41,759 nt of DNA, from IMG/VR virus record IMGVR_UViG_3300033076_000557, positions 1-41,759 of that record; one strand, written 5' to 3'. The stretch's first letter is position 1. Each line of letters starts with the position of its first letter. Below the pieces are notes generated by a model that saw nothing but the letters and a program-made list of their open reading frames with translations, searched no databases and was not told where the DNA came from. Made by a program: the position numbers and the translations under genes. The stretch is from a virus. Taxonomy: Duplodnaviria; Caudoviricetes. This document shows positions 1,940-40,592 of the stretch, in pieces.

Positions 1940-2169
1940 TGAAATGGCAAGACAACTTCACCACATGGAACCTGAAGACAGGTCAATATGTGCGTCACAT
2001 CAAGTTTGATGACATCAAACTAATCCTCCTCTACCACCGTATCTACGAGAACATGTTCTCTATCGACCAAATTCAAACTGTCGATGGAACGAACATCATC
2101 AACTTAGTGCGCGATAGAACAATTGAACGATTGGAAAATATTTTGCAAAGGGAATCCAATGAAATCTAA
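1939..2169 (+). CDS. Hypothetical protein
   Basis: TAATG coupling within the operon. Confidence 0.6.
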   Translation: MKWQDNFTTWNLKTGQYVRHIKFDDIKLILLYHRIYENMFSIDQIQTVDGTNIINLVRDRTIERLENILQRESNEI

Positions 2170-2368
2170 AAGCCTGTACGAAACTATCGTTGAAGAGTTT
2201 GAAGCAAGCAACAACCGTTATTGCGGCTGTTGTTTAGTTCTCGAAGGCAGCGGTGGATGTGACTGCGATCAACGCGCATGGCGCACATTTGGCGAGCTGG
2301 ACAAGGCAAGCCAAGATGAAATCATCAATCAAGAATTTGACATTGGATTTGAAAAGGAAAAGAAATGA
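2159..2368 (+). CDS. Hypothetical Cys-rich protein
   Basis: YCGCC...CDC; start taken at MKSKSL; ATGA overlap with the ERF gene. Confidence 0.6.
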   Translation: MKSKSLYETIVEEFEASNNRYCGCCLVLEGSGGCDCDQRAWRTFGELDKASQDEIINQEFDIGFEKEKK

Positions 2369-2982
2369 ACGTCTATAAAAAACTAAACGCAGCACGAGAT
2401 AAGTTTCACTCACAGAAGCTCAAAAAGTCTGGTCACAACAAGTTTGCGAACTACTACTACTTTGAGCTTGGTGACTTCATCATTCCTGCATTGCAAATCT
2501 TCCATGAAGTTGGCCTGACATCTGTTATCAGTTTTGATGTTGACATTGCACAAATGTCAATTATTAACATTGACAAACCAGAAGAAACCATCATCATACA
2601 AAGCCCCATGTCTACGGCTGCTTTAAAGGGCTGTCATGAGGTTCAAAACCTTGGGGCAGTACAAACATACCTGCGCCGCTATTTGTGGGTTGCAGCGCTT
2701 GAGATTGTTGAACACGATGCACTGGACGCTACAACAGGTCGTAAAGGCGATGCGCCTATCGTGACCCCAAAAGGTGGCATTGGTGATGACCTACCAGAAG
2801 AGGACAAAGAATTTTTGCGTGAAATGGCTCAGTCGTGTACAGAACTTGTAGCGAAGGGGCAAGCTAAAGACGCATATCTGATGATCAAGGAAGCTGTTCT
2901 TGACTCAGACCAAGAGGTTTGGTTATCTAACCAAATGGATGCTGCAACCCGCAGTGCAATTAAAAAATCAAAATCTCAATAA
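2365..2982 (+). CDS. erf: ERF-family single-strand annealing recombinase
   Basis: KSGHNKFANYYYFEL and LGAVQTYLRRYLW..ALEI...D ERF signature. Confidence 0.85.
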   Translation: MNVYKKLNAARDKFHSQKLKKSGHNKFANYYYFELGDFIIPALQIFHEVGLTSVISFDVDIAQMSIINIDKPEETIIIQSPMSTAALKGCHEVQNLGAVQTYLRRYLWVAALEIVEHDALDATTGRKGDAPIVTPKGGIGDDLPEEDKEFLREMAQSCTELVAKGQAKDAYLMIKEAVLDSDQEVWLSNQMDAATRSAIKKSKSQ

Positions 2983-2991
2983 GGAATTGAT

Positions 2992-3261
2992 ATGGCAGAG
3001 TTCGACAACACAAACCGTGGTGTTCTTTTCAATAACAAAGAAAAGAAAACCCAAGAAAATCACCCTGACTACAGTGGCTCCATTAACTTTAATGGCGTTG
3101 ACTGCTGGTTAAGCGGCTGGGTCAAAGAAAGCAAAGACGGCAAGAAGTTTTTCTCGTTGTCTGTCAAACCTAAAGAGCAACAGGCTCGCCAGGTGAGCCA
3201 GCCAACACGGAAAGCTCCCCCTGCCGAAGATTTGGACGATGGAAGTGACTTGCCTTTCTAG
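2992..3261 (+). CDS. Small single-stranded DNA-binding protein
   Basis: GVLF..PDYSG..WLSGW..FFSLSV OB-like core and acidic SSB-type tail DLDDGSDLPF; follows the recombinase. Confidence 0.7.
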   Translation: MAEFDNTNRGVLFNNKEKKTQENHPDYSGSINFNGVDCWLSGWVKESKDGKKFFSLSVKPKEQQARQVSQPTRKAPPAEDLDDGSDLPF

Positions 3262-3299
3262 AATGGCATATAATTTACATACCGTTTTAAGGAGAACTT

Positions 3300-3773
3300 A
3301 TGAAGGTATGTAAAGAATGTGGAGTTGAAAAAGAATTAAATGCTTTCTATAAACATTCAAAGATGGCAGACGGACACCTTAACAAGTGCATTGAATGCGT
3401 CAAAGAACGAGTTGGAAAGCACCGCGAATTGAACTTGAACAAGATCAGGGCATATGACCTTGCTAGAGCCAAAACTCCTCATAGGATGGCTAAAAACAAA
3501 GCATATGCTCAGTCTGAAAAAGGAAAATTAGCTCATAAAAAAGCTATGGAAAATTACAAAAAACGCTATCCGTTAGCCTATGCAGCAAAAGTGATAACTG
3601 GACATGCTGTTAGAGATGGAAAGCTTGTAAGGCCAACACATTGTTCAGAATGCAACTCCACACACAAAATAGAAGGTCATCATGATGACTACACCAAACC
3701 TCTTGAGGTACGCTGGCTTTGCGAAAAGTGCCACAAAAACTGGCATAACTACAACGAGCCAATTTATGAATGA
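3300..3773 (+). CDS. HNH-type (homing) endonuclease with N-terminal zinc finger
   Basis: CKEC..FYK..DG.LNKCIEC and CSEC...GHHDDYTKPLEVRWLCEKCH. Confidence 0.75.
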   Translation: MKVCKECGVEKELNAFYKHSKMADGHLNKCIECVKERVGKHRELNLNKIRAYDLARAKTPHRMAKNKAYAQSEKGKLAHKKAMENYKKRYPLAYAAKVITGHAVRDGKLVRPTHCSECNSTHKIEGHHDDYTKPLEVRWLCEKCHKNWHNYNEPIYE

Positions 3774-4048
3774 AAGTAAAGGAAATTGAAATGGAAAACT
3801 CAACTCGTGAAATGACTTTTGGCGAAAAAGCTTGTGGCGTTAGTTTTAACCCAGGCGGTCTTGAAAATGTAGCTTCAATCAAAGCAGATTTTGCAGCTAT
3901 TGTTGACAAACTAAACAACACGCGAGACGCTTCTACAAACCAAGAAGTAAAACGTATGTTGTCGATTGCTATTAGTGAAGCGCAAACAGCGCAGATGTGG
4001 GCAGTAAAAGCCGTTACATGGCAGTTTTAAAGTAAAGGAATTGAAATG
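3773..4048 (+). repeat. Direct repeat of RBS+start (AAAGTAAAGGA(A)ATTGAAATG) flanking the Acb2/Tad1-like gene
   Basis: Copies at 3773-3793 and 4029-4048 differ by a single A. Confidence 0.85.
3791..4030 (+). CDS. Acb2/Tad1-like helical-hairpin protein (candidate immune-signal sponge)
   Basis: TFGEKA.G.SFNP...IK..A..D.L...RMLSIAISEAQTAQMWAVKA resembles the Acb2/Tad1 hairpin pattern (R..A.A.T..Q.A.MW..KA); start moved to 3791 after the AAGGA RBS. Confidence 0.55.
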   Translation: MENSTREMTFGEKACGVSFNPGGLENVASIKADFAAIVDKLNNTRDASTNQEVKRMLSIAISEAQTAQMWAVKAVTWQF

Positions 4049-4174
4049 AAAAAAGTATTGGTAGCTATCGTATTGTTCGCATCTACGGCTGCGTTTGCAT
4101 CTTGTCCAACATATGCACCATATCGCTGTGTCGTTCTTATGAATGGCAAGCAAATGTGTGGCTGTGGAATGTAA
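4046..4174 (+). CDS. Secreted Cys-rich mini-protein (42 aa)
   Basis: Hand translation MKKVLVAIVLFASTAAFA/SCPTYAPYRCVVLMNGKQMCGCGM; Sec signal with AFA cleavage site; 4 Cys; AAGGA RBS. Confidence 0.7.
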   Translation: MKKVLVAIVLFASTAAFASCPTYAPYRCVVLMNGKQMCGCGM

Positions 4175-4193
4175 GTAAGTCAGGGGGATTGAC

Positions 4194-4529
4194 GTGCAAC
4201 TAGATTTGTTCATTGATCCCCCTTCCCCTATGAACCCCAACAGAAATCCAATAGCCCCTGATTGTTTTCGTGACTATGAGCAATACTCACAATGGCTTGG
4301 CCTTGCCAAGATTGCAAAAGAGGAATGCACCATTTGCGAAGACTGTGTAAGCGGTTATAAATCAAAAATGATGGTGGAAAACAGATGTCATTTTGAATGG
4401 CACTCAATCCAATTTATGCCACCAAAAAAAAATGCAAAGACTAAAGTAAAGAAGGAACTTCAATATGAAAAACTTTATTGGGAATTTTCTACATCGCGCT
4501 CGAAAAATGGACCCAACAACCAGCCATGA
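4194..4529 (+). CDS. Hypothetical Cys-containing protein
   Basis: PDCF...W...CTICEDC...M..ENRC pattern; GTG start after a GGGG RBS. Confidence 0.6.
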   Translation: MQLDLFIDPPSPMNPNRNPIAPDCFRDYEQYSQWLGLAKIAKEECTICEDCVSGYKSKMMVENRCHFEWHSIQFMPPKKNAKTKVKKELQYEKLYWEFSTSRSKNGPNNQP

Positions 4530-4767
4530 AGCTGCTTTGTCGATCAAAAAAACAGCACCCCTTCACATGCAAAAAATCCTTGAGTGCCTTGTTGAACATG
4601 GCCCACTAGGTAAAGATGGCATAGCCAGGCTTACTGGATTGAATGGAAATCAAATTGCTCGTAGGTTGCCAGAGATGGCACGTATGACACCCCCTCTGGT
4701 AAAAGAAACAGGCCGTACAGTTTCATCTGATGCTGGTCGCCAAGAACGTGAATGGAGCGCAGCATGA
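4465..4767 (+). CDS. Winged-HTH DNA-binding protein
   Basis: AR..DP.TSHEAA, ILECL.EHGPLGKDGIARLTGL..NQIARRLPEM, GRQEREW. Confidence 0.7.
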   Translation: MKNFIGNFLHRARKMDPTTSHEAALSIKKTAPLHMQKILECLVEHGPLGKDGIARLTGLNGNQIARRLPEMARMTPPLVKETGRTVSSDAGRQEREWSAA

Positions 4768-5039
4768 ATAAAGAAACAGGTGGGCCAGCTTTTCCAGCAA
4801 GCTATTACACCGATGATGGCGAATGGGCAAAAAGAGATGGCATGACCCTGCGCGACTACTTCGCTGCAAAAGCTAGCGAGGATGACGTTGCGTATTACAA
4901 ATTTCTTGGTGGGTATCAAGAAATTGTAAAAGTTGCTCCAGACGGAACGAAATACATTGTTCAAGAGGCAAACACTCGAACCCGTGAAGAAGCTAAGTAC
5001 GCTTACGCAGACGAAATGCTGAAAGCGAGAAAACAATGA
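4764..5039 (+). CDS. Conserved phage protein (GGPAFP / GMTLRDYFAA family)
   Basis: Recognisable motifs TGGPAFP, GMTLRDYFAAKA, AYADEMLKAR; ATGA start at 4764. Confidence 0.75.
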   Translation: MNKETGGPAFPASYYTDDGEWAKRDGMTLRDYFAAKASEDDVAYYKFLGGYQEIVKVAPDGTKYIVQEANTRTREEAKYAYADEMLKARKQ

Positions 5040-27665: not shown

Positions 27666-29258
27666 TCAAATCCTTTGGACCTTTCCCTCTAGGGGAGTAA
27701 ACCGTTTTGCGGCAAATGTGTTAGCTCGACTAACAACTGATTCACCATGACCTTGTATCAAGGCAAGAATGCCAATTCGTGCGCTATCAAGATGGTCATC
27801 TTTACCCGTGAATTTACCATGATCATCAATGGCATAGTTGCGAGCTTCGTCAAGAAACGTTTTACAGTTCTCGTTAATCAAGAAAGTTCCGCGCTCCATC
27901 ATTAACCGCATTATATTGATTCCGTAGGCAATGTGGTTTGTTACCTTGCCTTGGTCGTTCGGCGGGTTGAGAATAGCCCCTTGAATGCAGTTAAGACCAT
28001 ACGAGTCTTCGAACACTTCCCTGACGCTTTGTTCAGTAAGCGTGTAACGACCTGCAGTTCCTCCATCGTGGGGAAGGGCGATTGGAACGCCTTTGGATTC
28101 CTTGTCAAGCAAGTAATGTACGTATTCATCAGGCGTTTCACCGTTTGGAATGGTGATTTGTTTATGAAGGTAGATAACTTCTTGTACTGGATCACGGAAA
28201 AGGAACGAGATAACTGTCGGGTCATTTTTAATTCCCAAGTCAAAGCTAATTAAGCGTTCAAACTTCTCTTCTTTGCGAAGGTCAATGTCAACGCCTTTGT
28301 AAATAGGCCATTCCAGCAACGGGAACACCACGCCTTTGCCAACCATAGGAATACCGTTAATACGGCAATCACGCTCCCAAGGCATAAAGTCTCGACTAAG
28401 CTGGTCACGTTCTTCTTGTGAAAAAAACGGTTCACCCCATTCGTTTTCATACGGAATGTCGTTCCAAGTCACCCGCACATGCGAGTATCCCTCTACCTGA
28501 TCCCAAAACTTACGAACTAACCCTGACAACCCTTTGAGGGGGGTAAATGAGCAGATAACCTGTCCGTTTCGAGCTGCTGTACGAACAACAAGTTCTGAAA
28601 AAGTTTCATCTGGTGGCTGTTCATCAAGCACAACCAAGTCAAGCTCGAAACCTTGCAAGTGGCGAACTTGTTGTGTGTAGTTGCTGAAATAAAGCTTGGA
28701 CTTTCCACCACTAACGTGCCAGATTTCGATTGAGAGGACGTTGGCTCCATCGGACCTGTAGGACTTGTCATCAATGCACTCCTTTGGAATTGAGCCTGTG
28801 CCAAGTTTATATCCTTGCTTGATGTCATCGCATCCCAGCAATTTTGATTGCAAGGTTTTAGCCACCTGCTCCCAAGATTCGCCAGCCGCCATAGCCACAA
28901 TAGGCTTATCCCAAGTCTTGCCTTTCCAACCAGGAGGATAGCGACCTGTCAGGTGATAAGCAGTTTCGTAGGTAGAAGCAATGGTTTTACCAGCTCGGTT
29001 AGCGGCAATCATGCCACGGCGAGTTGATGTCAAGCCAGTTTCAAAGAACTTCTGTTGGTACTTAAATGGCCTAAACCATTTGAGCTGATTGAATTGCATC
29101 TCATGAGCTAACTTAGCTCGTGCAATCATCATTTTCTTTTTCTGTTCATCAGAAAGAGATTGGGCAGCTTTTTTACCCCCTGCCAATTTGACAAGGTACT
29201 TTAATGCTCGGTCTTTGTAGATTGGCTGAATGTAATCACTTGCTTCACTTTTTGCCAT
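27666..29258 (-). CDS. terL: Terminase large subunit
   Basis: Walker A AANRAGKT, Walker B LVVLDEQP, coupling motif SFTPLKG, nuclease SFDLG..DPT and DDHLDS. Confidence 0.95.
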   Translation of the reverse strand: MAKSEASDYIQPIYKDRALKYLVKLAGGKKAAQSLSDEQKKKMMIARAKLAHEMQFNQLKWFRPFKYQQKFFETGLTSTRRGMIAANRAGKTIASTYETAYHLTGRYPPGWKGKTWDKPIVAMAAGESWEQVAKTLQSKLLGCDDIKQGYKLGTGSIPKECIDDKSYRSDGANVLSIEIWHVSGGKSKLYFSNYTQQVRHLQGFELDLVVLDEQPPDETFSELVVRTAARNGQVICSFTPLKGLSGLVRKFWDQVEGYSHVRVTWNDIPYENEWGEPFFSQEERDQLSRDFMPWERDCRINGIPMVGKGVVFPLLEWPIYKGVDIDLRKEEKFERLISFDLGIKNDPTVISFLFRDPVQEVIYLHKQITIPNGETPDEYVHYLLDKESKGVPIALPHDGGTAGRYTLTEQSVREVFEDSYGLNCIQGAILNPPNDQGKVTNHIAYGINIMRLMMERGTFLINENCKTFLDEARNYAIDDHGKFTGKDDHLDSARIGILALIQGHGESVVSRANTFAAKRFTPLEGKVQRI

Positions 29259-29433
29259 ATGTGTCTCGTATGTTTAACAAGATATGAGCAGCTTGTGCCA
29301 AGTAATAAACGTCTTCAGGCTGAAGTTTTTGCTCACTTTGAAGGTCTTTTTGCAACCACTCTAAGCTTTTACGAGCGCAAACTTCTGCCTGACCAGACAA
29401 TCTCTGCCGAAAGATAGCAGAGAAGTCTTCCAT
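29245..29433 (-). CDS. Hypothetical protein
   Basis: Tightly packed in the late operon. Confidence 0.6.
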   Translation of the reverse strand: MEDFSAIFRQRLSGQAEVCARKSLEWLQKDLQSEQKLQPEDVYYLAQAAHILLNIRDTYGKK

Positions 29434-30075
29434 TTAAGCCCAAGGATCGGCAATGTTTTTAGCAGTAGCGCGAACCATGTCCTTATCAATCAAACCCCAA
29501 ATGCCGCCACCCTTTTCGCCAATCAAGAAGGTGTACAAACCTTGACCACGCTGAGTAAACGTGCCATCAGGGTTACGCATCACCAGCTCTTCAGTGCGAG
29601 GGTCGATCCAAGAATAGCGTTCAGGCACTTCTTGACCGTAGCGGTTGACCTTTGTACCAACAGCAATCTGCTCCAACGGACCCATCACTTGGTATGTGAT
29701 CAAGCCGTTGTTGTACTTTTTAAAGTTGATGCCCACTTTTTTGTCAGATTGAGGGTCTAACGGGTGAGGCATGTTGGTTGCGCCAAAGAAATGAACCATC
29801 GCATCTTCTGGAGGCAGGTCTTTGCTGCGCTCTGGAAGCTTACGAATCTCGTCAACAGGAATTTGTTCTTTGCGGTCAACATAAGGATTTTCATCCGTGA
29901 TGTATTCAGCAGGAATTTTCTTGCCTTCAAGAGCGTTCTTAGCAACCAAATATTGGTCTTCTTTTGGCTTGCCAATTAGATCAAGCGAAATCTGTGTACG
30001 GTCATACACAAATTGCGCAAGTTCTTTAGCCGTGGGTAAGTCGGCTTTTAAAGCCTCAATGTCATACGTTGCCAT
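29434..30075 (-). CDS. Hypothetical protein (213 aa)
   Basis: AAGGA RBS, typical codon usage, late operon. Confidence 0.7.
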   Translation of the reverse strand: MATYDIEALKADLPTAKELAQFVYDRTQISLDLIGKPKEDQYLVAKNALEGKKIPAEYITDENPYVDRKEQIPVDEIRKLPERSKDLPPEDAMVHFFGATNMPHPLDPQSDKKVGINFKKYNNGLITYQVMGPLEQIAVGTKVNRYGQEVPERYSWIDPRTEELVMRNPDGTFTQRGQGLYTFLIGEKGGGIWGLIDKDMVRATAKNIADPWA

Positions 30076-30084
30076 ATCTATCCT

Positions 30085-30309
30085 TTAGACGTTTTTCAGG
30101 GGTTTCACTTTTTGAAACTTGCCGCCATTCACATTATTTGTGGTTTGGTCAGACAAGTGAGTGACTTTAAACGCATTGCCAACGGCAGTAGCGATTTTTT
30201 GAGCGTGGCTGTGACCAGCCTCAAAAGCAGCCAATTTGCCATTGATACCTTTAGAAAGGCCTTTTGACATTTTTGCGCCGCCAGAGATTACTTTACCGTA
30301 TGCAGACAT
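30085..30309 (-). CDS. Small basic protein
   Basis: K/G/A-rich; GAGG RBS. Confidence 0.6.
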   Translation of the reverse strand: MSAYGKVISGGAKMSKGLSKGINGKLAAFEAGHSHAQKIATAVGNAFKVTHLSDQTTNNVNGGKFQKVKPLKNV

Positions 30310-30316
30310 GATTGCC

Positions 30317-30577
30317 TCACTTCAAGTAGGAAGAGTTTTTCAAGTAACCAGTGTTGGTTGACTTGGTGTCATAGCAGCAAGGAGTAGACACTTGCACTTT
30401 TTGATTGCGACCATTTACCTTGCCATCAGCAGCAGGAGCGCCAACATGACCAGCAGCATAAGCCGTAGAGCCTTGAGGACGAGTAACAGCGGTAACGCCA
30501 CCACCTTTAACAGCGGTGTTTTTGGAAATGTTGCCTTTGCGGTTTGGGGCTTGGGCATACAGGAAGTTAGTAGTCAT
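30317..30577 (-). CDS. Small basic protein
   Basis: GAAAGG RBS; K/G/T-rich. Confidence 0.6.
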   Translation of the reverse strand: MTTNFLYAQAPNRKGNISKNTAVKGGGVTAVTRPQGSTAYAAGHVGAPAADGKVNGRNQKVQVSTPCCYDTKSTNTGYLKNSSYLK

Positions 30578-30608
30578 TTCGGACCTTTCGTGATTGGTTA
30601 GCCAATTA

Positions 30609-31088
30609 TCACACTTTTCGCAACGAGTCTAAAAACTCGTCCATAGCATCTTCAGCCGTTACATCTTCATCTTTATGGACATTTTGTACATGTTCAATAG
30701 AAATGATAGGAGCGCGGGAAGATTCAAAAGCAGCCAGCTTGTCGGCAATACGAGCCTTTTCTTTGATGTCCAGCTCGTCAGAGTTCATGGCATGGATCAA
30801 AGTTTCCATCGCGGATGTCAGCGGAGGCAAGCCCATGCTGGTACGTTCGTCATTGAGCTTATTGAACGTAGCCCCGTACTCGGTAACTTTGTTGATAATC
30901 GACTTAGGCCGACCAGCGGTGTTACGGTTCGCTGGGTCATTGAGGCCACCAGTGCGCGGAAGCTTTTCGCCAGTAGCCAGTTTCATGGCTTTCTTCTCTG
31001 CACGTTTTGCAGCCGCATAAGCACGGGCTTCAGCTTTCTTTGCCTCGGAAGAAACGTGTGAACCTTCTGGCCTTATTTCGTCAAACAT
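30609..31088 (-). CDS. Probable terminase small subunit
   Basis: GG......N..GRPK...NK motif and R...A..LA.FE..R typical of TerS; upstream of terL. Confidence 0.65.
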   Translation of the reverse strand: MFDEIRPEGSHVSSEAKKAEARAYAAAKRAEKKAMKLATGEKLPRTGGLNDPANRNTAGRPKSIINKVTEYGATFNKLNDERTSMGLPPLTSAMETLIHAMNSDELDIKEKARIADKLAAFESSRAPIISIEHVQNVHKDEDVTAEDAMDEFLDSLRKV

Positions 31089-31615
31089 TTCATAGCCTCT
31101 TCAGTACGAATCCAAGCATAGGAGCCATTGACAATGAACCCACGCTTTTTGTGAATCTTCATAAACCCATCGTGGTCAGCACGAATGGATGTTGAACAGA
31201 CAATAGGAACATTCCAAGTATGCGCCCAAAGTATATGTTGGTCAATCATCTCGTTAACAAGACGTACACGAGTACGTACAGGCAAATTAAGGTCCAAGTG
31301 GTGGAACTTAGCATTTGAAATTTCTTCGTTAGAGTAGGTTGTATAACCACCACGGTCAAACCAGCAAAAGCCGAGAAGGGGTTGTTCAAAGCATTCCTTG
31401 TTTCTATCCCAGTTTTCAGTAGTCTCGCCTCGGCACACAGCAATGAACTCACGGGACTTGTTGAACAGTTGTTCAGTAGTCGCAACAGTAACCCTATGTC
31501 GGAACACCTTGCGATCCCGTTTAAGGATGCCATCAGCTTCATGACCAAAGAAGCTATCCGCCATCTCAACAATGTCCTCTACGTCATGCAGAGGGTGAGC
31601 CAATGACCATGCCAT
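31073..31615 (-). CDS. Divergent GNAT-fold protein
   Basis: W.LA....DVEDI, LLGFCW, RLVNEMI.....WA, F......GF...G pattern of N-acetyltransferases; lacks the canonical R/QxxGxG. Confidence 0.45.
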   Translation of the reverse strand: MAWSLAHPLHDVEDIVEMADSFFGHEADGILKRDRKVFRHRVTVATTEQLFNKSREFIAVCRGETTENWDRNKECFEQPLLGFCWFDRGGYTTYSNEEISNAKFHHLDLNLPVRTRVRLVNEMIDQHILWAHTWNVPIVCSTSIRADHDGFMKIHKKRGFIVNGSYAWIRTEEAMKCLTK

Positions 31616-31653
31616 ACTATTCTCCTGCGGAGCAAGCCGCGCATTTTTTACAT

Positions 31654-31735
31654 TACCAACACAACTGAGGACTGATTCTCTCCGTGAAAGGTGGTCGGCC
31701 TAGCCTCAGCCTAACAATCCTCATGTGTCTTGGTA
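31654..31735 (-). ncRNA. Candidate structured RNA hairpin 1 in the late leader
   Basis: UACCAA-G-ACA-CA-UGAGGAUUG pairs with CAGUCCUCA-GU-UGU-G-UUGGUA around a 40-nt loop; G-U pair favours the minus strand. Confidence 0.55.
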
Positions 31736-31753
31736 GGTAAAACCTAAACGGTA

Positions 31754-31814
31754 GGTACTCGCTGCACTGTGATAGCAAGCGTTGGCTCTTTCGTTCACAG
31801 CATCCGCTTTCCCC
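31754..31814 (-). ncRNA. Candidate structured RNA hairpin 2 with loop-E-like internal loop
   Basis: GG-GAA-AGC...CUGUGA / UCACAG...GCG-AGUA-CC; GAA opposite AGUA is the bulged-G signature. Confidence 0.5.
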
Positions 31815-31963
31815 ACGTGAAGAAGTCTACGACAGCTTCCCCCACAAAAGATTTTACAGGAAAAAATTTTATATAGCAATCGAGATATGTAATTTCTATT
31901 GGATAAAGGCGGGGTTTCATAGATGTTTTTTTAGAAAAAATTTGGGAATGGGTGAGTGGGCCT

Positions 31964-32040
31964 CCCCTCTCCGTCACCCAATCCAGCCCTACCCCCTCCG
32001 CGCCTTCAGCCAATCGGCTAGGGGGGTGTGAGTAGGGGGG
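31964..32040. other. G/C-run tract at the left edge of the early island (candidate terminus / packaging signal)
   Basis: C4,C3,C3,C5 runs then two G6 runs, preceded by T7/A6 tracts; point where transcription diverges upstream of terS. Confidence 0.4.
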
Positions 32041-32042
32041 TG

Positions 32043-32096
32043 AGTTACTGACTCGCTGGTCATTAGTTGTTTAAGTTACTGACTGGGCGGTCATTA
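32043..32096. promoter_or_regulatory. Tandem operator-like palindromes TGAC-N6-GTCA
   Basis: AGTTACTGACT-n4-GGTCATTA at 32043-32065 and 32074-32096 (20/23 identical, 31-bp period). Confidence 0.7.
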
Positions 32097-32188
32097 ATAG
32101 CTGAGTGGAAGGCCCGATCATTTAAGCGGTTTTCTTATTTCCCCTTCTCTTATGTCTCTCTCTATCTTCTCTCTCTTCTCTTATAGGT

Positions 32189-32324
32189 AGAGCTAACAAA
32201 GGCTTGGGGGTTTCCCTTTATTTATGCGGGTTCCGTGGGGGTTGCATAGAAGCTAACAATGCCGCTGCCTTCTCTTCTCTTCCCTTCTATCTCTACTACA
32301 TGAAGAGCTAACAAAGGCTTGGGG
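32189..32324 (+). repeat. 21-bp direct repeat AGAGCTAACAAAGGCTTGGGG plus a partial third copy, among CT-rich tracts
   Basis: Perfect copies at 32189-32209 and 32304-32324; core AGCTAACAA also at 32251-32259. Confidence 0.9.
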
Positions 32325-32420
32325 CTTCTCTCTTTTTCTTTTCTCTTTTCTTATGTCTTGAATTAGCACTAAATCAAGTTACTCATAACAACTCTATCTA
32401 GATATTTATGCATTTAGCTA

Positions 32421-32448
32421 TTGACATGTAGAGGCTAGGCTATACAAT
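32421..32448 (+). promoter_or_regulatory. Strong sigma70 promoter of the early island
   Basis: TTGACA-N16-TACAAT with AT-rich upstream DNA. Confidence 0.85.
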
Positions 32449-32504
32449 ACAGACAGAGACAGCAGCTCTCTACCTTAAATCTAATTCAATTCGAAAGGTT
32501 TTAC

Positions 32505-32801
32505 ATGTCGACAATCATTCTTTCCCCATCGCTCGCAGCTCTTACAGATGAAATCGGCGCGATTCGCGCAGAGATCAAACGCCTCGAATCAATCAATAAA
32601 CAGCTTACAGACCAGCTCAAAGATACAGGTGCTGGTAAGCATACAGGCGCGATCTATAAATCTACCGTTTATCCTGTACCAGAGAAAACTACTGTTAACT
32701 GGCACGCAGTAGCTATGCATTTCGAGCCATCGCGCCAGCTCATTACAGCTCACAGCAGCACATCTACAGGCTCTCTCGCTGCGCTGATCTCAAAGATTTA
32801 A
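32505..32801 (+). CDS. Conserved early phage coiled-coil protein
   Basis: DEIGAIRAEIKRLE....L...LK....G..Y..TV......TVNW.AVA pattern; GAAAGG RBS. Confidence 0.7.
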   Translation: MSTIILSPSLAALTDEIGAIRAEIKRLESINKQLTDQLKDTGAGKHTGAIYKSTVYPVPEKTTVNWHAVAMHFEPSRQLITAHSSTSTGSLAALISKI

Positions 32802-32810
32802 GGGTTTCAC

Positions 32811-32894
32811 ATGTCTAAATTTATCGTTTCTGCTTCTCTCTTCGCTGTGTGGGTTTGTCTCATGCTCTCTACTTTTGGCGTTTTAACTAAATAA
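32811..32894 (+). CDS. Hydrophobic peptide (27 aa)
   Basis: Hand translation MSKFIVSASLFAVWVCLMLSTFGVLTK; TAAGGG RBS; fills the gap in the operon exactly. Confidence 0.6.
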   Translation: MSKFIVSASLFAVWVCLMLSTFGVLTK

Positions 32895-32905
32895 GAGGTT
32901 TCATT

Positions 32906-33214
32906 ATGAAAAAGTCACAATTTTTCGCTGTCTCTCAATTTCTCACAGATTACCCAGATGGCATGTCGTTTAACGATGTGATCGATGCTGTCGCTGCTGG
33001 CAGTGATGAAATCACTCGCTGGGAGATGGTAGAGAGCTGGTCTGATGCTGATTTGGCAGAGGCGATAGAGATGTGCGAGCTGTCATTTTCTCGCGCTGTC
33101 GCTGATATTTTGAACGAGGAAAAAGAGTCAAAACCATCTAATGCACTAAATGAGCATTTTGGAGATGTGGATAAATTTCTGCGCGATCATTTCACCGTAA
33201 TTTCAATTAAATAA
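32906..33214 (+). CDS. Acidic hypothetical early protein
   Basis: About 21 D/E versus 9 K/R; TAAGAGG RBS. Confidence 0.7.
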   Translation: MKKSQFFAVSQFLTDYPDGMSFNDVIDAVAAGSDEITRWEMVESWSDADLAEAIEMCELSFSRAVADILNEEKESKPSNALNEHFGDVDKFLRDHFTVISIK

Positions 33215-33224
33215 GAGGCTCAAA

Positions 33225-34097
33225 ATGCAACGTAAAGTATTTAAAAACGCTCCAAAATTTAATTTGCTGCAAGATTTTGCTGCTGTCATTCAGTCAGGCG
33301 ATCAGCATGCTATTTCTCGCGCTCTCTATGCACTACAGATCAGCGAATCATTTCAGGGTAAGAGCTGGCAGACTAACTTTGCAAAGCTCGCAGATCTCTT
33401 CGCTGATGGCGCAGCTCGTTTCTCTATCTTCGCTGCTGGCGGTAACTCTAAGCTGCCTTTTGTCTCTTTTTCTACTTTGCCGGGCGTCACATGTCCTGGC
33501 GCTGGTGCATGCATCGATTACTGTTACAGCTACCGCGCATGGCGATATCCTGCTGCTTTTGCTCGCATGGCTCAGAATGCATGGCTGATGCGTTTCAATA
33601 CAGCAGCGATCAGCGCAGCTTTTGCAGAGATCGCACAGGCTCGCGCTGATGGCTTTGATTTTCGTCTGTATGTAGATGGCGATTTTTCCTCTGGCGCTGA
33701 TGTGGCATTTTGGATGGCTGAATTACATAAAACACCTACAGCTCGCGCCTATGGCTACAGCAAAAGCTTTGCTGCGCTACTGGGTTTTAACGTGATCGGC
33801 TCATGGCCTAAAAATTATCAGCTCAATATTTCAAGCGGTCACAATGCATCGCCATCGATGCTGGCTTACGTTAAACAGCTACCTATTACGCGAGGTGAAT
33901 TTATCGCTGTGTCTATCGGGCGAAAAGTAAAAGGTAGCGAGCATGGCACAGCAGCAGTAAATCAGGCGCTACGCGATGCTATGCCAGATCAGAAAATTTT
34001 TCCATGTCCCGGCACATGTGGCAGCTGTACAGGGAAAGGCCATGCATGCGGTATGCAGCAGCTAAAAGGCCGGGTTATTGCAATTGCTATGCACTGA
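33225..34097 (+). CDS. GP88-like Cys-rich protein (radical-SAM-like Fe-S fold suspected)
   Basis: GNSKL...SFS.LP..TCPGAGACIDYCY (Cx5Cx3C), FRLYVDGDF, YGYSK, P.N..LNIS, C-terminal CPGTCGSC...HAC. Confidence 0.75.
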   Translation: MQRKVFKNAPKFNLLQDFAAVIQSGDQHAISRALYALQISESFQGKSWQTNFAKLADLFADGAARFSIFAAGGNSKLPFVSFSTLPGVTCPGAGACIDYCYSYRAWRYPAAFARMAQNAWLMRFNTAAISAAFAEIAQARADGFDFRLYVDGDFSSGADVAFWMAELHKTPTARAYGYSKSFAALLGFNVIGSWPKNYQLNISSGHNASPSMLAYVKQLPITRGEFIAVSIGRKVKGSEHGTAAVNQALRDAMPDQKIFPCPGTCGSCTGKGHACGMQQLKGRVIAIAMH

Positions 34098-34107
34098 AAG
34101 GGTTTTT

Positions 34108-34224
34108 ATGTCTAAAACTGAAATCTGCGAATACTACGATTCGCACCCAAATCTCACATTGTCTGAGCTGTCAGCGATTACAGGAAAAACAATCGCGCAG
34201 CTTAAAAATATTCTGATGGGCTAA
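34108..34224 (+). CDS. Mini HTH-like protein (38 aa)
   Basis: Hand translation MSKTEICEYYDSHPNLTLSELSAITGKTIAQLKNILMG; TLSELS.ITG.T..QL HTH pattern; AAGGG RBS. Confidence 0.7.
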   Translation: MSKTEICEYYDSHPNLTLSELSAITGKTIAQLKNILMG

Positions 34225-34231
34225 AACCCGT

Positions 34232-34255
34232 ACCAGCTCTGCGCTGGTTTTTTTT
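34232..34255 (+). terminator. Rho-independent terminator of the early island operon
   Basis: ACCAGC-TCTGC-GCTGGT followed by a T-run. Confidence 0.8.
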
Positions 34256-34629
34256 GGTTTGTAGGTAGCACTGTGAGCCTGTCGCTGGCACTGATGTGCT
34301 GGCTGTCTGCGCCTGTCTGCTGGCTTTTCTGCTGGCTGTGCTGCTGCGCCTGTCTGATGCTGCCTGATGCGGTAGGCGGTAGCGTGAGCGCTGGTTTTAT
34401 AAGATGGGTTTATATCGGGGTTTATATGCTTGGGGCTTATGGGTTAGATATAGCGCTAAAACGCTATAAAACGCGATTTAAGGCGGGTTTTGCTATTGTC
34501 GCTGGGTTATATGCTTGGTGCGTAATGAGGCTATAGGTGAGCGTTTTATCAAGGCAAGGGGGCAAAATGAAGAATTATGTAAAGCTGACGGGGGTCATGG
34601 CGGGAAAAATGGTTTTTGATTTTGAAAAA

Positions 34630-34721: not shown

Positions 34722-35078
34722 TTAGTGAAAACGTAGGAGAAACAGGGTTTGGTTGATCAGGTTGGCAATATTGTCTACTTCGTTTTGAATTTCGCTGTCT
34801 TGGGGGAGCTTCGTGCGCTGTGTCTCGACATACTCTTTCAGCTCTTCAAGCTCTGCTTTGCCGTTGGCTGCTTGGGCATAGTAGCCCCCCTTGAAAGTAG
34901 GGGTAGCCCCATATTTTCCCATCAGCTTTTCAGCCAAGCTGTCAACCAACTCTGGTAGCTCTGTGTAAAACGCACCCAACGCTTGATGCTCTGCATAGCT
35001 TTTAGTCGTCCAGTGCAGCAGGTGTGTGTTGGTTGCTGCATGTAGCAGGGTCAACAAGAAGTCGGCTGATTCTTTCAT
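34722..35078 (-). CDS. Ferritin/Dps-like four-helix protein (DUF5856-like)
   Basis: H..HW.T.SYAEH.ALG.FY..L..LVD.LAE..MGKYG...E.QN..D.I..LI..T.F.L; ATGA start at 35078. Confidence 0.8.
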   Translation of the reverse strand: MKESADFLLTLLHAATNTHLLHWTTKSYAEHQALGAFYTELPELVDSLAEKLMGKYGATPTFKGGYYAQAANGKAELEELKEYVETQRTKLPQDSEIQNEVDNIANLINQTLFLLRFH

Positions 35079-35434
35079 CTCTTCGCTCCAATATGTTGAA
35101 GCACTCGTAAGGCAGCATCTACCTTCCAAGGCTTTAAAGCTATATTATCTGCGATGTTGGCCCATTCGTGTACTTGCTTGAACCAAGCTTTGTCGAAGAG
35201 CTTCTTTTTTTCATTCTTTGACATCGGGCCTTGGTCCAGCCATGTATGACACTTGTAGCATCCCCACACACTCATGCAGTCATCAGCTTTGAGGCCACGA
35301 CCTTTGCCATGTATAAGTTCATTACTATGACATGCCACAGTTGTTGAACCTTCATCACCATCACAGTATGGATGGCACTCTAGCAAGCACTTCTCGCCTT
35401 GGGCTAGGCGCAGTAGATCAGGGTCGCGGTACAT
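35075..35434 (-). CDS. DUF1364 / YbcO-like zinc-binding nuclease
   Basis: C......C.....TTVACHSN...HGKG.GLKADD.....GC..CH..LD. Confidence 0.85.
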   Translation of the reverse strand: MYRDPDLLRLAQGEKCLLECHPYCDGDEGSTTVACHSNELIHGKGRGLKADDCMSVWGCYKCHTWLDQGPMSKNEKKKLFDKAWFKQVHEWANIADNIALKPWKVDAALRVLQHIGAKR

Positions 35435-35888: not shown

Positions 35889-36112
35889 GTCATTCTTTCC
35901 TCTTTCTTAATTCTGCGCATACATTCACGGACTTTTCTTTCACCACCAAAGCCAAACTTTTCATCACACAAAGCCAATTTTGCTTCGATTGTTGCCTTGT
36001 TTTTCATCACTTCCCATGTTGTCAGTAGCTCTCGTGCTTCTGCCATGATTAAGTCATGCAGTGATGGGCTTGGCTTTGGGTTTCTTACCCTGAATACTGG
36101 TCTTGTACTCAA
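35873..36112 (-). CDS. Hypothetical protein
   Basis: ORF track 35873..36157; TTGA-coupled start at 36112 is more likely. Confidence 0.5.
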   Translation of the reverse strand: MSTRPVFRVRNPKPSPSLHDLIMAEARELLTTWEVMKNKATIEAKLALCDEKFGFGGERKVRECMRRIKKEERMTCENQ

Positions 36113-36654
36113 GTGTTCTTTTCCTTTAGTTTGGCTTCGACTGCCGCGACTAGCCAATGACGAGATTTGTCCGTCATTCCAGCAAGTTGCAGTTCTTCCT
36201 CATCCGTCAGCCCAACCCATGTGCGCTGTGGTGACTTAAACAAAGGCACATCAATATTGAAAGGGATGCTCTTGATGTCAAAGTTGTCATGCGGCTCAAG
36301 CCTATATTCGTTGTATTCATTGCGGTGGATGTACGCCACAGGCTCCTGCTCTTTGGGTTGTGCCGTAGGTACGGGTGGATGTGTGTTTTTATATCCTGCG
36401 TAAATTGGCGTTCTACCTTCTGGCACTTCTTCGCCATATCCGCTAAAGATATAAATGTTGTTGATGGCTAGATCAGCGTGTCCGATAAGTTCTAGCCTTT
36501 GCTCTACCTGTTCATTGCTTTGTTGTGCCAAAAATGCCTTAACAATTTCTATTTCATAATCCCAACCATCTGATTGATATGGTTTTTTATCCATTATTTC
36601 AAGCAACAATTCTTCATGGTCATAAAACCATTTCACTATTTTTTCTTCGTTCAT
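36109..36654 (-). CDS. Mosaic phage protein (EPVA / WVGLTDEE family)
   Basis: EQEPVAY, QRTWVGLTDEE, AVEAKLKEKNT motifs; start MNEEK after AAGGAG. Confidence 0.7.
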   Translation of the reverse strand: MNEEKIVKWFYDHEELLLEIMDKKPYQSDGWDYEIEIVKAFLAQQSNEQVEQRLELIGHADLAINNIYIFSGYGEEVPEGRTPIYAGYKNTHPPVPTAQPKEQEPVAYIHRNEYNEYRLEPHDNFDIKSIPFNIDVPLFKSPQRTWVGLTDEEELQLAGMTDKSRHWLVAAVEAKLKEKNT

Positions 36655-36908
36655 AGTTGCTCCTTTGTGTAAAGCGGAATGTGTGTTGCAGTGCAATATT
36701 CGTCTACGTCATCAGCCATGTAGACGTTGCCTTGGCAAATAAACGCCACAGGCTTTTGCTCTGGCTGTGCCAAGGCTTCTTTGATGGCGGTGATGGCTTT
36801 ATTGCCATTCGCCCATCGCTTTGGGTGTGACTGTTTTATGTATGCCGATTTTTCATAACTTTCCAACGCCTCAAGCGCCAGCTTCAGCGCATCAATCTGT
36901 TTGCTCAT
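36651..36908 (-). CDS. Phage protein (ALKLALEAL family)
   Basis: ALKLALEALE...AITAIKEALAQPEQ.PVA...PLYT; ATGA start at 36908. Confidence 0.7.
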   Translation of the reverse strand: MSKQIDALKLALEALESYEKSAYIKQSHPKRWANGNKAITAIKEALAQPEQKPVAFICQGNVYMADDVDEYCTATHIPLYTKEQL

Positions 36909-39697: not shown

Positions 39698-39924
39698 TTT
39701 TCAACTCCTTCTATTGCATTACGTTTTCTATTCCAATCCTCTGACCAACTCAAACAATCACCCAGCTCTGTTGATCTAGAGTAGATTGATCTACAAGCCT
39801 TCGGTGCGATCTTATGTACGTCAAAGTCTCCAGTGACATACAAAGCTTCGTTTATCTTTGATTCAGGAAAGTACATTCCCATCTTCACTTGGTTCAACAG
39901 TGCATGTGCTTCATGTTTTGTCAT
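39694..39924 (-). CDS. Hypothetical protein
   Basis: MT..EA..LL..VK.G......I..AL..TGD; ATGA coupling. Confidence 0.65.
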   Translation of the reverse strand: MTKHEAHALLNQVKMGMYFPESKINEALYVTGDFDVHKIAPKACRSIYSRSTELGDCLSWSEDWNRKRNAIEGVEK

Positions 39925-40592
39925 ACAAACAACAAGTCCTGTACAGAAACCTCACCTCCTGCGTCATAGCGTTTGCTATCACCTTTTGGGTAAGGCTCAA
40001 TGTCGTACATCAAGGATGAAAGCATGGCTTTCTTTTGCCCTTGGCTTCCAACAAAATAAATATAACGATGCTTTCTGGCTCTGTCTTGCAAATAGAAATC
40101 ATCACCAAACTTGTCACGCATCCATTGCGCTCTGTTTTCTTGGCCTCTGCTCATGTCTGCAACAGTTGCACCATGAAGATGCTCCATTCCTTTAAGCTTC
40201 CAATCTGTTCGTTTGGCGCTTAGACCTGTATAGACAAAGTTTGTGGCTTGATATACGTAACCAACATGACCTTGCTCTGTGTCTGCGTAAGAAACTACCA
40301 CTGTAGGTTTTGGTAACATTTTTAAAGACCTGCCAACAAGAATTGAGGCAATATTTTTTTTGTTTTCACAGCAAAGGCGATTAAGCTCAATTACGTTATC
40401 CATCCACTTTTCACCACAGACACCAACTCTGAGGGAGCTACTAACTGGCGTTCCATAAGTCACCACGCCGATAAGCTTTGGCCCGTCATACGCTCCAAAT
40501 GCGTAGCTGATAGGACACATGCGTTTAGCATAGTGCTTCTTGAGCAACCACGGCTCAGTTTCTTCTGCTTTGATTGGCAATACTTTTAACAT
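39921..40592 (-). CDS. mom: Mom-like adenine-modifying GNAT enzyme
   Basis: HY......FG......LIGV.TYG.P, ELNRL, SLKML, VVSYADTEQGHVGYVYQATNFVYTG, KHRYIY, PYPK motifs of the Mu Mom family; TTG start with AAGGA RBS. Confidence 0.75.
   Translation of the reverse strand: MLKVLPIKAEETEPWLLKKHYAKRMCPISYAFGAYDGPKLIGVVTYGTPVSSSLRVGVCGEKWMDNVIELNRLCCENKKNIASILVGRSLKMLPKPTVVVSYADTEQGHVGYVYQATNFVYTGLSAKRTDWKLKGMEHLHGATVADMSRGQENRAQWMRDKFGDDFYLQDRARKHRYIYFVGSQGQKKAMLSSLMYDIEPYPKGDSKRYDAGGEVSVQDLLFV

Follow-up and report, generated by a model that had tools for sequence, protein, structure and literature searches.

Organisation of the early cassette

The window, meaning the whole stretch of 41,759 nucleotides analysed here, derives from a freshwater phage and carries a short cassette of five ORFs placed head-to-head with the terminase genes (Table 1). 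The same arrangement is found in the annotated relatives, where the corresponding place is referred to below as the slot.

Table 1. Features of the cassette and its surroundings in the window
Feature	Position	Strand	Basis
Motif-purged segment; lowest in the genome for A…T pairs at 7-9 bp	32393..34428	.	counts and shuffles
Sigma70-type promoter consensus, TTGACA-16-TACAAT, 11/12 match, at left purge edge	32421..32448	+	consensus match only
98-aa ORF outside known families, in a cluster with 17 members in the 39 slots	32505..32801	+	profile search, clustering
Hydrophobic ORF of 26 aa without family; possibly not a gene	32811..32891	+	
Acidic ORF of 102 aa without family; ortholog in L237	32906..33214	+	
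GP88 (PF17338, E 9.5e-16), 290 aa; candidate anti-restriction protein	33225..34097	+	Pfam
38-aa ORF; by eye like the small helical proteins of a slot family with 6 members	34108..34224	+	
Intrinsic-terminator-like hairpin (34232-34248) and T run at cassette end	34232..34255	+	consensus match only
Non-coding CTG/GC-rich low-complexity tail, within purge	34270..34400	.	
Non-coding gap, packaging operon to cassette; not SAAS-poor; putative genome-end site	31616..32392	.	
Packaging operon, reads away from cassette	27666..31615	-	
Terminase large subunit	27666-29258	-	packaging operon
Probable terminase small subunit	30609-31088	-	inferred from position
180-aa ORF of packaging operon	31073-31615	-	
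DUF5856 gene, conserved right-hand border of slot	34722..35129	-	
Mom-family gene (PF25680, E 2.2e-39)	39921..40592	-	Pfam

Promoter-like and terminator-like sites bracket the ORFs, and the cassette is likely to form a putative host-promoter early unit. The original prediction had credited it with a promoter and a terminator of its own; both sequences are present, but as consensus matches only, and a promoter scan returned four promoter-like sites where 4.5 were expected by chance. Short direct repeats (32177-32212 and 32292-32327) occupy part of the gap on the packaging side. The cargo had also been held to be anti-defensive. Profile searches of the window annotated no cargo gene in this way, the sole Pfam match above cut-off within the cargo being GP88.

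Loss of short adenine words

Direct counting returned exactly eight SAAS/STTS tetramers (S being C or G) in 32461-34420, comprising CTTC four times, CAAG twice and GAAC and CAAC once each, with GAAG, GTTG, GTTC and CTTG at zero. This recount agreed word by word with the earlier one made by hand, and base composition alone predicted 61 sites, close to the figure of roughly 60 given previously; the control stretch 34741-35100 contained 22 sites and not the 23 claimed. The true edges of the purge were placed at 32393-34428 (last normal site 32389, next 34429), an interval in which the eight sites compare with 100 at the backbone rate. The lowest count in any 1960-bp window elsewhere was 67. Counted as tetramer pairs, GAAC/GTTC stood at 1 against 16, CAAC at 1 against 32, CAAG at 2 against 30 and GAAG at 4 against 22. 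Four short words are down by about nine tenths in this early cassette of approximately 2 kb.

Shuffles that preserve dinucleotides yielded 65.9 sites (minimum 47 in 500 shuffles) and those that preserve trinucleotides 24.7 (minimum 13 in 500). The five ORFs (1677 nt) hold eight sites, four per strand, where 52.5 ± 5.9 were expected from the codon usage of the genome (minimum 36 in 1000) and 33.2 ± 4.2 from synonymous shuffling within the island (minimum 20 in 1000); two non-coding pieces totalling 310 nt hold none. The purge is confirmed as real, on both strands and beyond the effects of codon and amino-acid composition. Its claimed presence on either strand, in genes and non-coding DNA alike, was upheld, and the depletion persisted under the codon controls that had been proposed as a check.

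The loss extends beyond SAAS to SACS (14 vs 43), GGA (15 vs 42) and CCA (55 vs 84). GATC (12), AGCT (24), GCGC (22), CATG (16) and CAG/CTG (127) remain abundant, as had been stated. Palindromes are enriched (161 vs 91 for 4-mers, 39 vs 14 for 6-mers), as are AAAA/TTTT. Two further causes were considered and rejected: an RNA-level toxin, since the strands are equally depleted, and avoidance of a CRISPR PAM, since A/T-flanked AAG and TTC occur in near-normal numbers.

Spacing of adenines and the slot among relatives

The number of A…T pairs at distances of 7-9 bp, divided by that at 12-23 bp, was used as a statistical proxy for bipartite restriction sites. A…T pairs 7-9 bp apart numbered 129 in the island vs 198, a count as low being reached in none of 400 tetramer-preserving shuffles, and S-flanked pairs fell to 35 vs 67 at 7 bp and 36 vs 66 at 9 bp. 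The ratio had its genome minimum, 0.65, at 32401-34400, against a genome median of 0.97. Of 39 slots anchored on the terminase, 38 showed the gap (mean ratio 0.75 vs 0.98), as did 54 of 57 GP88 loci (0.80 vs 0.96). Pairs of C…G and G…C at the same spacing showed no gap in the slots and loci of the relatives; T…A pairs were mildly low too (0.92, 33 of 39 slots). The interval holding GP88 lay outside the lowest tenth of its own genome in two of 18 genomes. Synonymous shuffling of 129 non-redundant slot ORFs gave z scores of -7.5, -7.5 and -4.6 at 7, 8 and 9 bp, compared with +1.1, +1.4 and -1.1 for backbone genes. One control stretch of backbone reached a z of -3.0. The deficit of T follows the register of the adenine, falling at +7..+10 after CCA, +6..+9 after SAC and +6..+8 after SAAS. 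As positive controls, first-step-transfer DNA of T5 yielded ratios of 0.70-0.88 vs 0.94-1.04 beyond it, and the left 9 kb of T3 gave 0.80-0.87. A listing of trimer pairs was noisy, mixing plausible bipartite words with poly-A/T artefacts, and was not used to name specific motifs.

Type I enzymes require SAM and leave 6-9 bp between the two adenines that they methylate (PMC3874165). The gap, lying at the spacing of those adenines, points to Type I site geometry, anchored on adenine. In a toy model on random DNA, approximately 300 specificities were needed to reach a ratio of 0.80. The 0.65 of the window and its tenfold loss of tetramers both exceed the effect obtained in that model.

The purge is tied to the slot facing the terminase genes, not to Mom or to any one cargo gene. 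It recurs with unrelated cargo, which is variable among the relatives, and in unrelated phage types. The ten slots that lack GP88 are about as purged as the remainder (0.78 vs 0.75), so that GP88 is not obligatory for the purge, and self-avoidance of GP88 was rejected as a general cause on the same ground.

The position of restriction sites in first-injected DNA decides sensitivity to Type I enzymes (PMC12455610; PMC10644984). Among 29 incomplete contigs, 16 end no more than 700 bp from the start of the 180-aa gene, four of these inside it, a pattern that assembly breaks could equally produce. No contig from the sequencing runs spans the stretch, and these show no pile-up of ends. One run covers both flanks and leaves out 32.8-33.5 kb, which proves nothing in either direction. 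A contig labelled Dechloromonas in a metagenome-assembled genome carries a terminase of 77% identity, possibly through a binning artefact, and no cultured close relative was found. The proposal of a host-promoter entry cassette shaped by defence systems with asymmetric m6A sites gains from the A…T gap shared with T5 first-step-transfer DNA, but its entry end is only probable.

GP88/DUF7227 occupies 28 of 38 related slots as judged by clustering and Pfam, and ArdA one other (L360). Searches by tblastn with the GP88 of the window found no match in the terminase-anchored slots, whose GP88/DUF7227 proteins are divergent, or among GenBank phages. In the T7-like Autographiviridae phage CRP-171 a GP88 gene lies between the terminase and early genes, the position of gene 0.3. 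All of 23 close homologs keep the triad C90-x5-C96-x3-C100 unchanged, and C261, C265, C268 and C275 are invariant too; the first and last cysteines of the triad, whose spacing is non-canonical, are conserved across subfamilies. Spore photoproduct lyase was the top match for two independent structural models, with further radical-SAM enzymes among the best, although the alignments to 4fhc are weak (Z 7.3, rmsd 4.3 over 192 residues; Z 6.1, rmsd 3.8 over 153) and the scores are tied with those of viperin and QueE. Foldseek returned nothing for the models at E<=0.001, a sequence search of the PDB gave no significant match to a solved structure, and an atlas search recovered GP88 clusters only. 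Among the profiles tried, PF17338 and phrog_1392 alone matched, those of SAM lyase, Ocr and ArdA failing to do so; full-text literature searching retrieved no functional paper on GP88. On its models GP88 looks radical-SAM-like in fold, and it is the lead candidate for the anti-restriction protein of the cassette.

Origin of the purge and comparison with known systems

Taken together, these data are best explained, with a probability of about 0.7, by an early host-promoter unit next to the terminase genes, likely the first DNA to enter and to be read, which has been cleared of sites for many SAM-dependent host restriction systems with asymmetric m6A targets; its products, GP88 included, would then switch restriction off. 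The physical end of the genome would fall in the 31.6-32.4 kb gap, with the cassette entering first. Because half-site domains are shuffled among Type I enzymes, a phage meeting hundreds of Type I specificities may lose the shared half-sites themselves. On this view SAAS would stand for half-sites of this kind, to which the A-[C/G] termini of contiguous targets (Type IIG/IIL, Type III or BREX) should probably be added. Survival of the unpurged backbone would follow from the inactivation of restriction by cassette products, for which the lead is GP88, most likely acting as a SAM-destroying iron-sulfur enzyme in the role of the T3 SAMase.

It is possible, if rather unlikely, that avoidance of Type I sites, though real, plays a secondary part and that the tenfold loss of SAAS reflects a host factor reading a word of three to four letters on the first-entering DNA, be it a short-motif nuclease, a DNA-modifying toxin or a roadblock, with the word differing per host lineage. 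The avoided word does differ between lineages: SAG is enriched 1.6-1.7-fold in the clade of the window and depleted in 56 of 58 loci, while GAG/AGA are nearly lost altogether from G014 and G015. The shortfall of SAAS against the trinucleotide-preserving null speaks for such a reader as well. It is less easily reconciled with the partial depletion of many further adenine words in the slot, or with the persistence of eight sites in the window at positions that shift between orthologs. The surviving sites are moreover deficient in T at +6..+8 and dependent on flanking bases, as would be expected of parts of longer sites.

Avoidance of restriction sites is likewise preferred to the suggestion, here considered improbable, that the island had to remain without targets for the adenine modification that the phage makes with its Mom-type enzyme, in order that host RNA polymerase could read virion DNA. 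The product of Mu Mom is 6-NcmdA. The window and L003, both Mom-positive, belong to the clade with the strongest SAAS/SACS purge, and the motif of this Mom could differ from that of Mu. The island is enriched for the Mu motif, SAS (PMC13219725), with 267 vs 213. Mom is rare among the relatives, being found in one of 50 GP88 records and none of the 16 complete ones, in none of 17 relatives searched with a custom profile and above cut-off in three of 39 terminase relatives. The comparison of relatives with and without mom that had been proposed revealed no co-variation: SAAS ratios go as low as 0.31-0.38 in complete relatives without Mom and are 0.41, 0.63 and 0.95 in Mom carriers, L237 is purged in the same way with nothing in its Mom slot over the 20.9 kb covered, and G056 and G057 encode a Mom 87-88% identical without any purged stretch. 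The 7-9 bp gap would also be left unexplained. Mom was rejected as the cause, neither its presence nor the SAS of Mu tracking the purge, and, Mom being an accessory gene, the claim that island, cargo and Mom form one system does not hold. As for another phage-encoded modifier in Mom-less relatives, a Pfam search of 137 ORFs picked from six genomes, structural ORFs and those above 560 aa being left out, yielded only C5 methyltransferases, in two genomes.

Very improbable, too, is that GP88 itself acts on DNA, as a repair enzyme resembling spore photoproduct lyase or as a modifier, with the cassette avoiding the lesion or target so as to be read before GP88 exists. The leading structural match and the TT step inside STTS would suit this. 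Dipyrimidines are undepleted (YY 430 vs 435), a count on which UV-dimer avoidance was also rejected, AAAA/TTTT are enriched, slots without GP88 are purged, and the structural scores do not separate the lyase from viperin and QueE. The reading that a recently acquired cassette passively carries the signature of a donor genome or of codon usage is largely refuted; variable cargo would fit it, as would the avoidance of CCGG by the backbone (one in 39.7 kb), which the cassette with its three does not share. The purge nevertheless withstands synonymous shuffling within the island, includes non-coding DNA, recurs with other cargo and phage types and is accompanied by a long-range spacing signal, and it persists in an ortholog whose third positions are 64% identical, which makes a recent donor unlikely. 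Avoidance of the Dnd motifs GAAC/GTTC, scarce though these are, is most improbable, since they are one of four equally depleted pairs and GATC, another Dnd motif, is abundant and indeed enriched.

If restriction avoidance is the correct reading, the geometry of Type I sites leaves a local footprint detectable in a single 2-kb stretch in the absence of any host motif, and this footprint also marks T5 first-step-transfer DNA. It offers a way to point, from sequence alone, to the entry ends of uncultured phages and to their anti-defence cassettes, and nominates GP88 for an anti-restriction role. A wider proposition, which we regard as doubtful, is that GP88/DUF7227 might constitute a widespread, undescribed class of radical-SAM-like iron-sulfur counter-defence proteins that destroy SAM from the first-entering cassette, such that Type I, IIG, III and BREX systems fall together. 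The cassette might then record hundreds of host specificities, the A…T gap might show, for nearly every uncultured phage, where the entry end and the anti-defence genes lie, and the missing words might spell out the restriction repertoire of the host.

Like phage Mu, the window encodes a PF25680 Mom protein, which differs from Mu Mom in being an accessory gene 5.5 kb from the island. GP88 resembles the radical SAM superfamily in its three conserved cysteines, followed by a conserved aromatic residue, and in an R-x-x-x-(D/S)GD strand; it departs from it in a variable cysteine spacing (x5/x3 in the window, x13-14/x2 in others), in a second, C-terminal cysteine cluster in most members and in Z scores below 8. 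The T3 SAMase defeats Type I and BREX systems by removing SAM (bioRxiv 2023.02.27.530186). With this protein (0.3), T7 Ocr and ArdA the slot proteins share a leading position in the early cassette, seen for GP88 in CRP-171 and for ArdA in L360, although GP88 is Cys-rich, has a predicted barrel and matches none of their profiles.

Genome-wide surveys are reported to have found Type I site avoidance uncommon in phages, without considering position (PMC12455610). A literature search covering few subscription papers and no supplements retrieved no earlier report of motif-level early purges or of a bipartite footprint. The first-step-transfer DNA of T5 and the early regions of T7, T3 and murciaviruses are host-promoter early units, expressible for lack of restriction sites (PMC10644984; PMC12455610), and the island shares the 7-9 bp A…T gap with those of T5 and T3. 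Unlike in these regions, close relatives differ in the word they avoid, there is no avoidance of palindromes and we infer the order of entry. The published early-region cases concern single known sites, whereas here whole words of three to four letters fall up to tenfold.

The SAAS-poor cassette and its slot

The SAAS-purged island is a real feature of the window. The original prediction counted 8 SAAS/STTS tetramers ([CG]AA[CG] or [CG]TT[CG]; S is C or G) in 32461-34420, a count that proved exact, and its estimate of roughly 60 from base composition compares with a calculated 61. The limits of the purge are wider, at 32393-34428, where 8 sites were found versus 100 expected at the rate of the backbone (the rest of the genome); every other 1960-base window holds at least 67. 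The purge begins just before a sigma70-type promoter match and continues approximately 180 bases beyond a terminator-like hairpin. With the proteins of the five ORFs held fixed, 52.5 sites were expected with genome codon usage and 33.2 with their own, versus 8 observed, so the depletion persists after control for codons and amino acids; as had been proposed, both strands are affected (4 + 4). The ortholog of GP88, a cassette gene, at the related locus L237 is 64% identical to that of the window at third codon positions and contains 9 sites where the window has 5, most of them at different positions. Sites that remain few but mostly relocated at this identity indicate that the purge is being maintained.

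Depletion extends to SACS, GGA and CCA, while SAG, GATC, GCGC and CGCG are raised, in agreement with the predicted abundance of GATC and GCGC. Aspartate codons between 32505 and 34224 comprise 26 GAT and 1 GAC, compared with 50:50 in the backbone. The non-coding tail beyond the terminator (34270-34400) is CTG/GC-rich and of low complexity, and a comparable SAGS-rich block of 500 bases lies downstream of the cassette in loci L001 and L003/L014.

Features of the window
Feature	Position	Strand	Remark
Acb2/Tad1 hairpin-domain protein	3770-4030	+	PF24729, E 5e-9; outside the purged island
180-aa ORF	31073-31615	-	upstream of probable small terminase; conserved family-wide
sigma70-type promoter match	32421-32448
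GP88	33225-34097	+	PF17338, 290 aa
terminator-like hairpin	34232-34248
Mom-family gene	39921-40592

The window is a virus record of 41,759 bases; by family annotation the phage is podovirus-like, with a terminase, SU10-type portal and capsid, Erf and a Cro-like regulator, and the sequencing runs containing the window were freshwater metagenomes in most cases. Judged from its sequence, the Acb2/Tad1-like gene is likely a signal-sponge anti-defence gene. The 180-aa ORF gave no Pfam or PHROG match and looks GNAT-like by eye. Summed contig depth over 36100-36900, a short segment common to many phages, was very high with many joints in 4 of 4 runs examined.

Relatives were collected in two sets. 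From 80 viral and 80 metagenome loci anchored on GP88, 58 distinct loci (window counted) with at least 5 kb of flank were kept; from 80 terminase-anchored loci, 38 that were distinct and reached both borders were retained and 42 dropped, yielding 39 slots (cassette positions) with the window. Lambda-like tailed phages are represented among the GP88-anchored genomes, as are phages encoding a family A polymerase. Where relatives were annotated, the cassette stands head-to-head with the terminase genes. In both sets short non-palindromic adenine words are scarce in it, the avoided word being SAAS in some relatives and SAG/AGA or GAC in others; the nearest terminase relatives (93% and 95%) are purged of SAG/AGA, not of SAAS. 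The purge is a property of the slot. Around GP88 in genomes G014 and G015 (L102, L105), GAG and AGA are nearly gone over approximately 2.5 kb, at 0-6 per 500 bases versus 9-16, a loss exceeding what a toy model of Type I specificities yields.

A spacing gap with Type I-like geometry

Type I sites, as described in PMC3874165, consist of two half-sites, one carrying a methylated A and the other the complement of a T, with these bases 6-9 bp apart, and the enzymes require SAM. A-then-T pairs at distances of 7-10 should therefore be scarce. In pooled slots these pairs stood at 0.85, 0.85 and 0.89 at distances 7, 8 and 9, and at 0.92-1.02 at distances 4-6 and 10-20. Synonymous shuffling of 129 non-redundant slot ORFs gave z of -7.5, -7.5 and -4.6 at 7, 8 and 9, whereas backbone genes were flat (+1.1, +1.4 and -1.1); protein helices are therefore not the cause. 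The absent T tracks the place of the adenine, falling at +7 to +10 after CCA, +6 to +9 after SAC and +6 to +8 after SAAS.

Expressed as pairs of S-flanked bases at distances 7-9 over 12-23, the A…T ratio averaged 0.75 versus 0.98 in slots (lower in 38/39) and 0.80 versus 0.96 at GP88 loci (lower in 54/57), tallies that, given shared ancestry, are not independent trials. Other pairs gave 0.92 (T…A), 1.00 (C…G) and 1.01 (G…C). Of 18 genomes, window counted, 16 had their GP88 region in the lowest tenth; one of the 18 was 65% complete and five were short by up to approximately 1 kb. The window's own minimum, 0.65, lies at 32401-34400, and the island's shortage of pairs at distances 7-9 (129 versus 198; 0/400) withstands tetramer- and pentamer-preserving shuffles; the gap is therefore independent of the SAAS count. 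In 600-base windows across the non-coding stretch to the left of the SAAS limit the ratio has already fallen to 0.73-0.74, so the two signals have no sharp border in common. The shortage of A…T pairs points to a reader with Type I restriction geometry. The next-lowest ratio, 0.87-0.88, belongs to a second early cluster (Erf, Acb2/Tad1-like) at 2001-5000, which reached z -3.0 in a single shuffle test and may be under a milder version of the same pressure.

Type I specificity diversifies via recombination of half-site domains, according to PMC3874165. Under many specificities a common half-site would rarely be safe and may be lost as a word. The toy model, on random DNA, required approximately 300 specificities for a ratio of 0.80, so hosts would have to present hundreds. 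Contiguous systems probably contribute; MmeI-family enzymes require SAM and recognise sites whose last two bases are a methylated A and a C or G (PMC2731913), and these sites change base by base (PMC2731914). The most depleted hexamers of pooled slots often end in A plus C or G. We infer that SAAS loss is the outcome of many half-site specificities together with contiguous systems. The loss is tenfold, above the toy-model yield, which leaves room for an additional reader of short words beside Type I avoidance.

Mom modification and Type IIP avoidance

It had also been proposed that the phage's own Mom-type modification shaped the island. The window and L003, both Mom-positive, do belong to the most strongly purged clade, but in L237 of that clade the Mom slot is empty in the half genome seen. 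A search of 50 GP88 records turned up a single Mom, with none among the 16 that were complete; a profile made from 79 Mom homologs found no Mom in 17 relatives, and of 39 terminase relatives 3 scored above the cut-off. SAAS ratios were 0.95, 0.63 and 0.41 in Mom-positive slots and as low as 0.31 in complete Mom-less ones, while genomes G056 and G057 encode a Mom 87-88% identical yet have no purged stretch. SAS, modified by Mu Mom according to PMC13219725, is raised, not lowered, in the island (267 versus 213). Mom presence does not track the purge and does not explain it.

Type IIP avoidance was rejected as the shaper of the slot, since the island is enriched in palindromes and contains CCGG 3 times, versus once in 39.7 kb of backbone, a contrast common in relatives.

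Cassette cargo and comparison with first-injected DNA

GP88 or DUF7227 was present in 28 of 38 related slots, the family scan covering 103 of 144 slot ORFs of at least 60 aa. One slot without GP88 encodes an ArdA-like protein; slots without GP88 at L336:5249-5866 and L340:4576-5211 instead encode a protein with a sliding-clamp-like match. Three cysteines of the window's GP88 form an invariant triad, and the protein contains a further Cys cluster. Predicted models of this GP88 (pTM 0.80) and of a family member sharing 22% identity (pTM 0.84) both ranked spore photoproduct lyase first, followed by viperin, QueE and further radical-SAM enzymes at Z < 8; a Foldseek search with these models gave no match at E<=0.001. 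T3 SAMase defeats Type I and BREX systems through SAM removal (bioRxiv 2023.02.27.530186), and in the T7-like CRP-171 the GP88 gene follows the terminase and precedes the early genes and RNA polymerase, the place taken by the SAMase in T3. GP88 may be an anti-restriction protein, at slightly less than even odds; action through SAM is less probable still.

Restriction-site avoidance in first-injected DNA is already known. The literature searched contained no report of a word-level purge with lineage switching, a Type I spacing footprint or GP88 as the usual slot occupant. Near the gap left of the cassette, 16 of 29 truncated contigs end, a pattern that would fit a genome end at this candidate site but that assembly breaks could also yield.

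Type I and II systems strike T5-like phages mainly with sites in the first-step-transfer region (PMC10644984), and murciaviruses are subject to restriction through a Type I motif only if it lies within the early-injected region (PMC12455610). Milder depletion of SAAS, SAG and GGA accompanies a 7-9 bp A…T gap in the first-entering DNA of T5 (L375, 1-10 kb) and T3 (L374, 1-9 kb). The ratio drops at the GP88 genes of AM24, CRP-171 and CRP-2. It is 0.70-0.88 in the annotated first-step-transfer repeat of T5, where the gap falls at distances 8 and 9, versus 0.94-1.04 past the repeat, and 0.80-0.87 in the left 9 kb of T3. The first-step-transfer DNA of T5 and the left end of T3 thus share the 7-9 bp A…T gap of the window's island.
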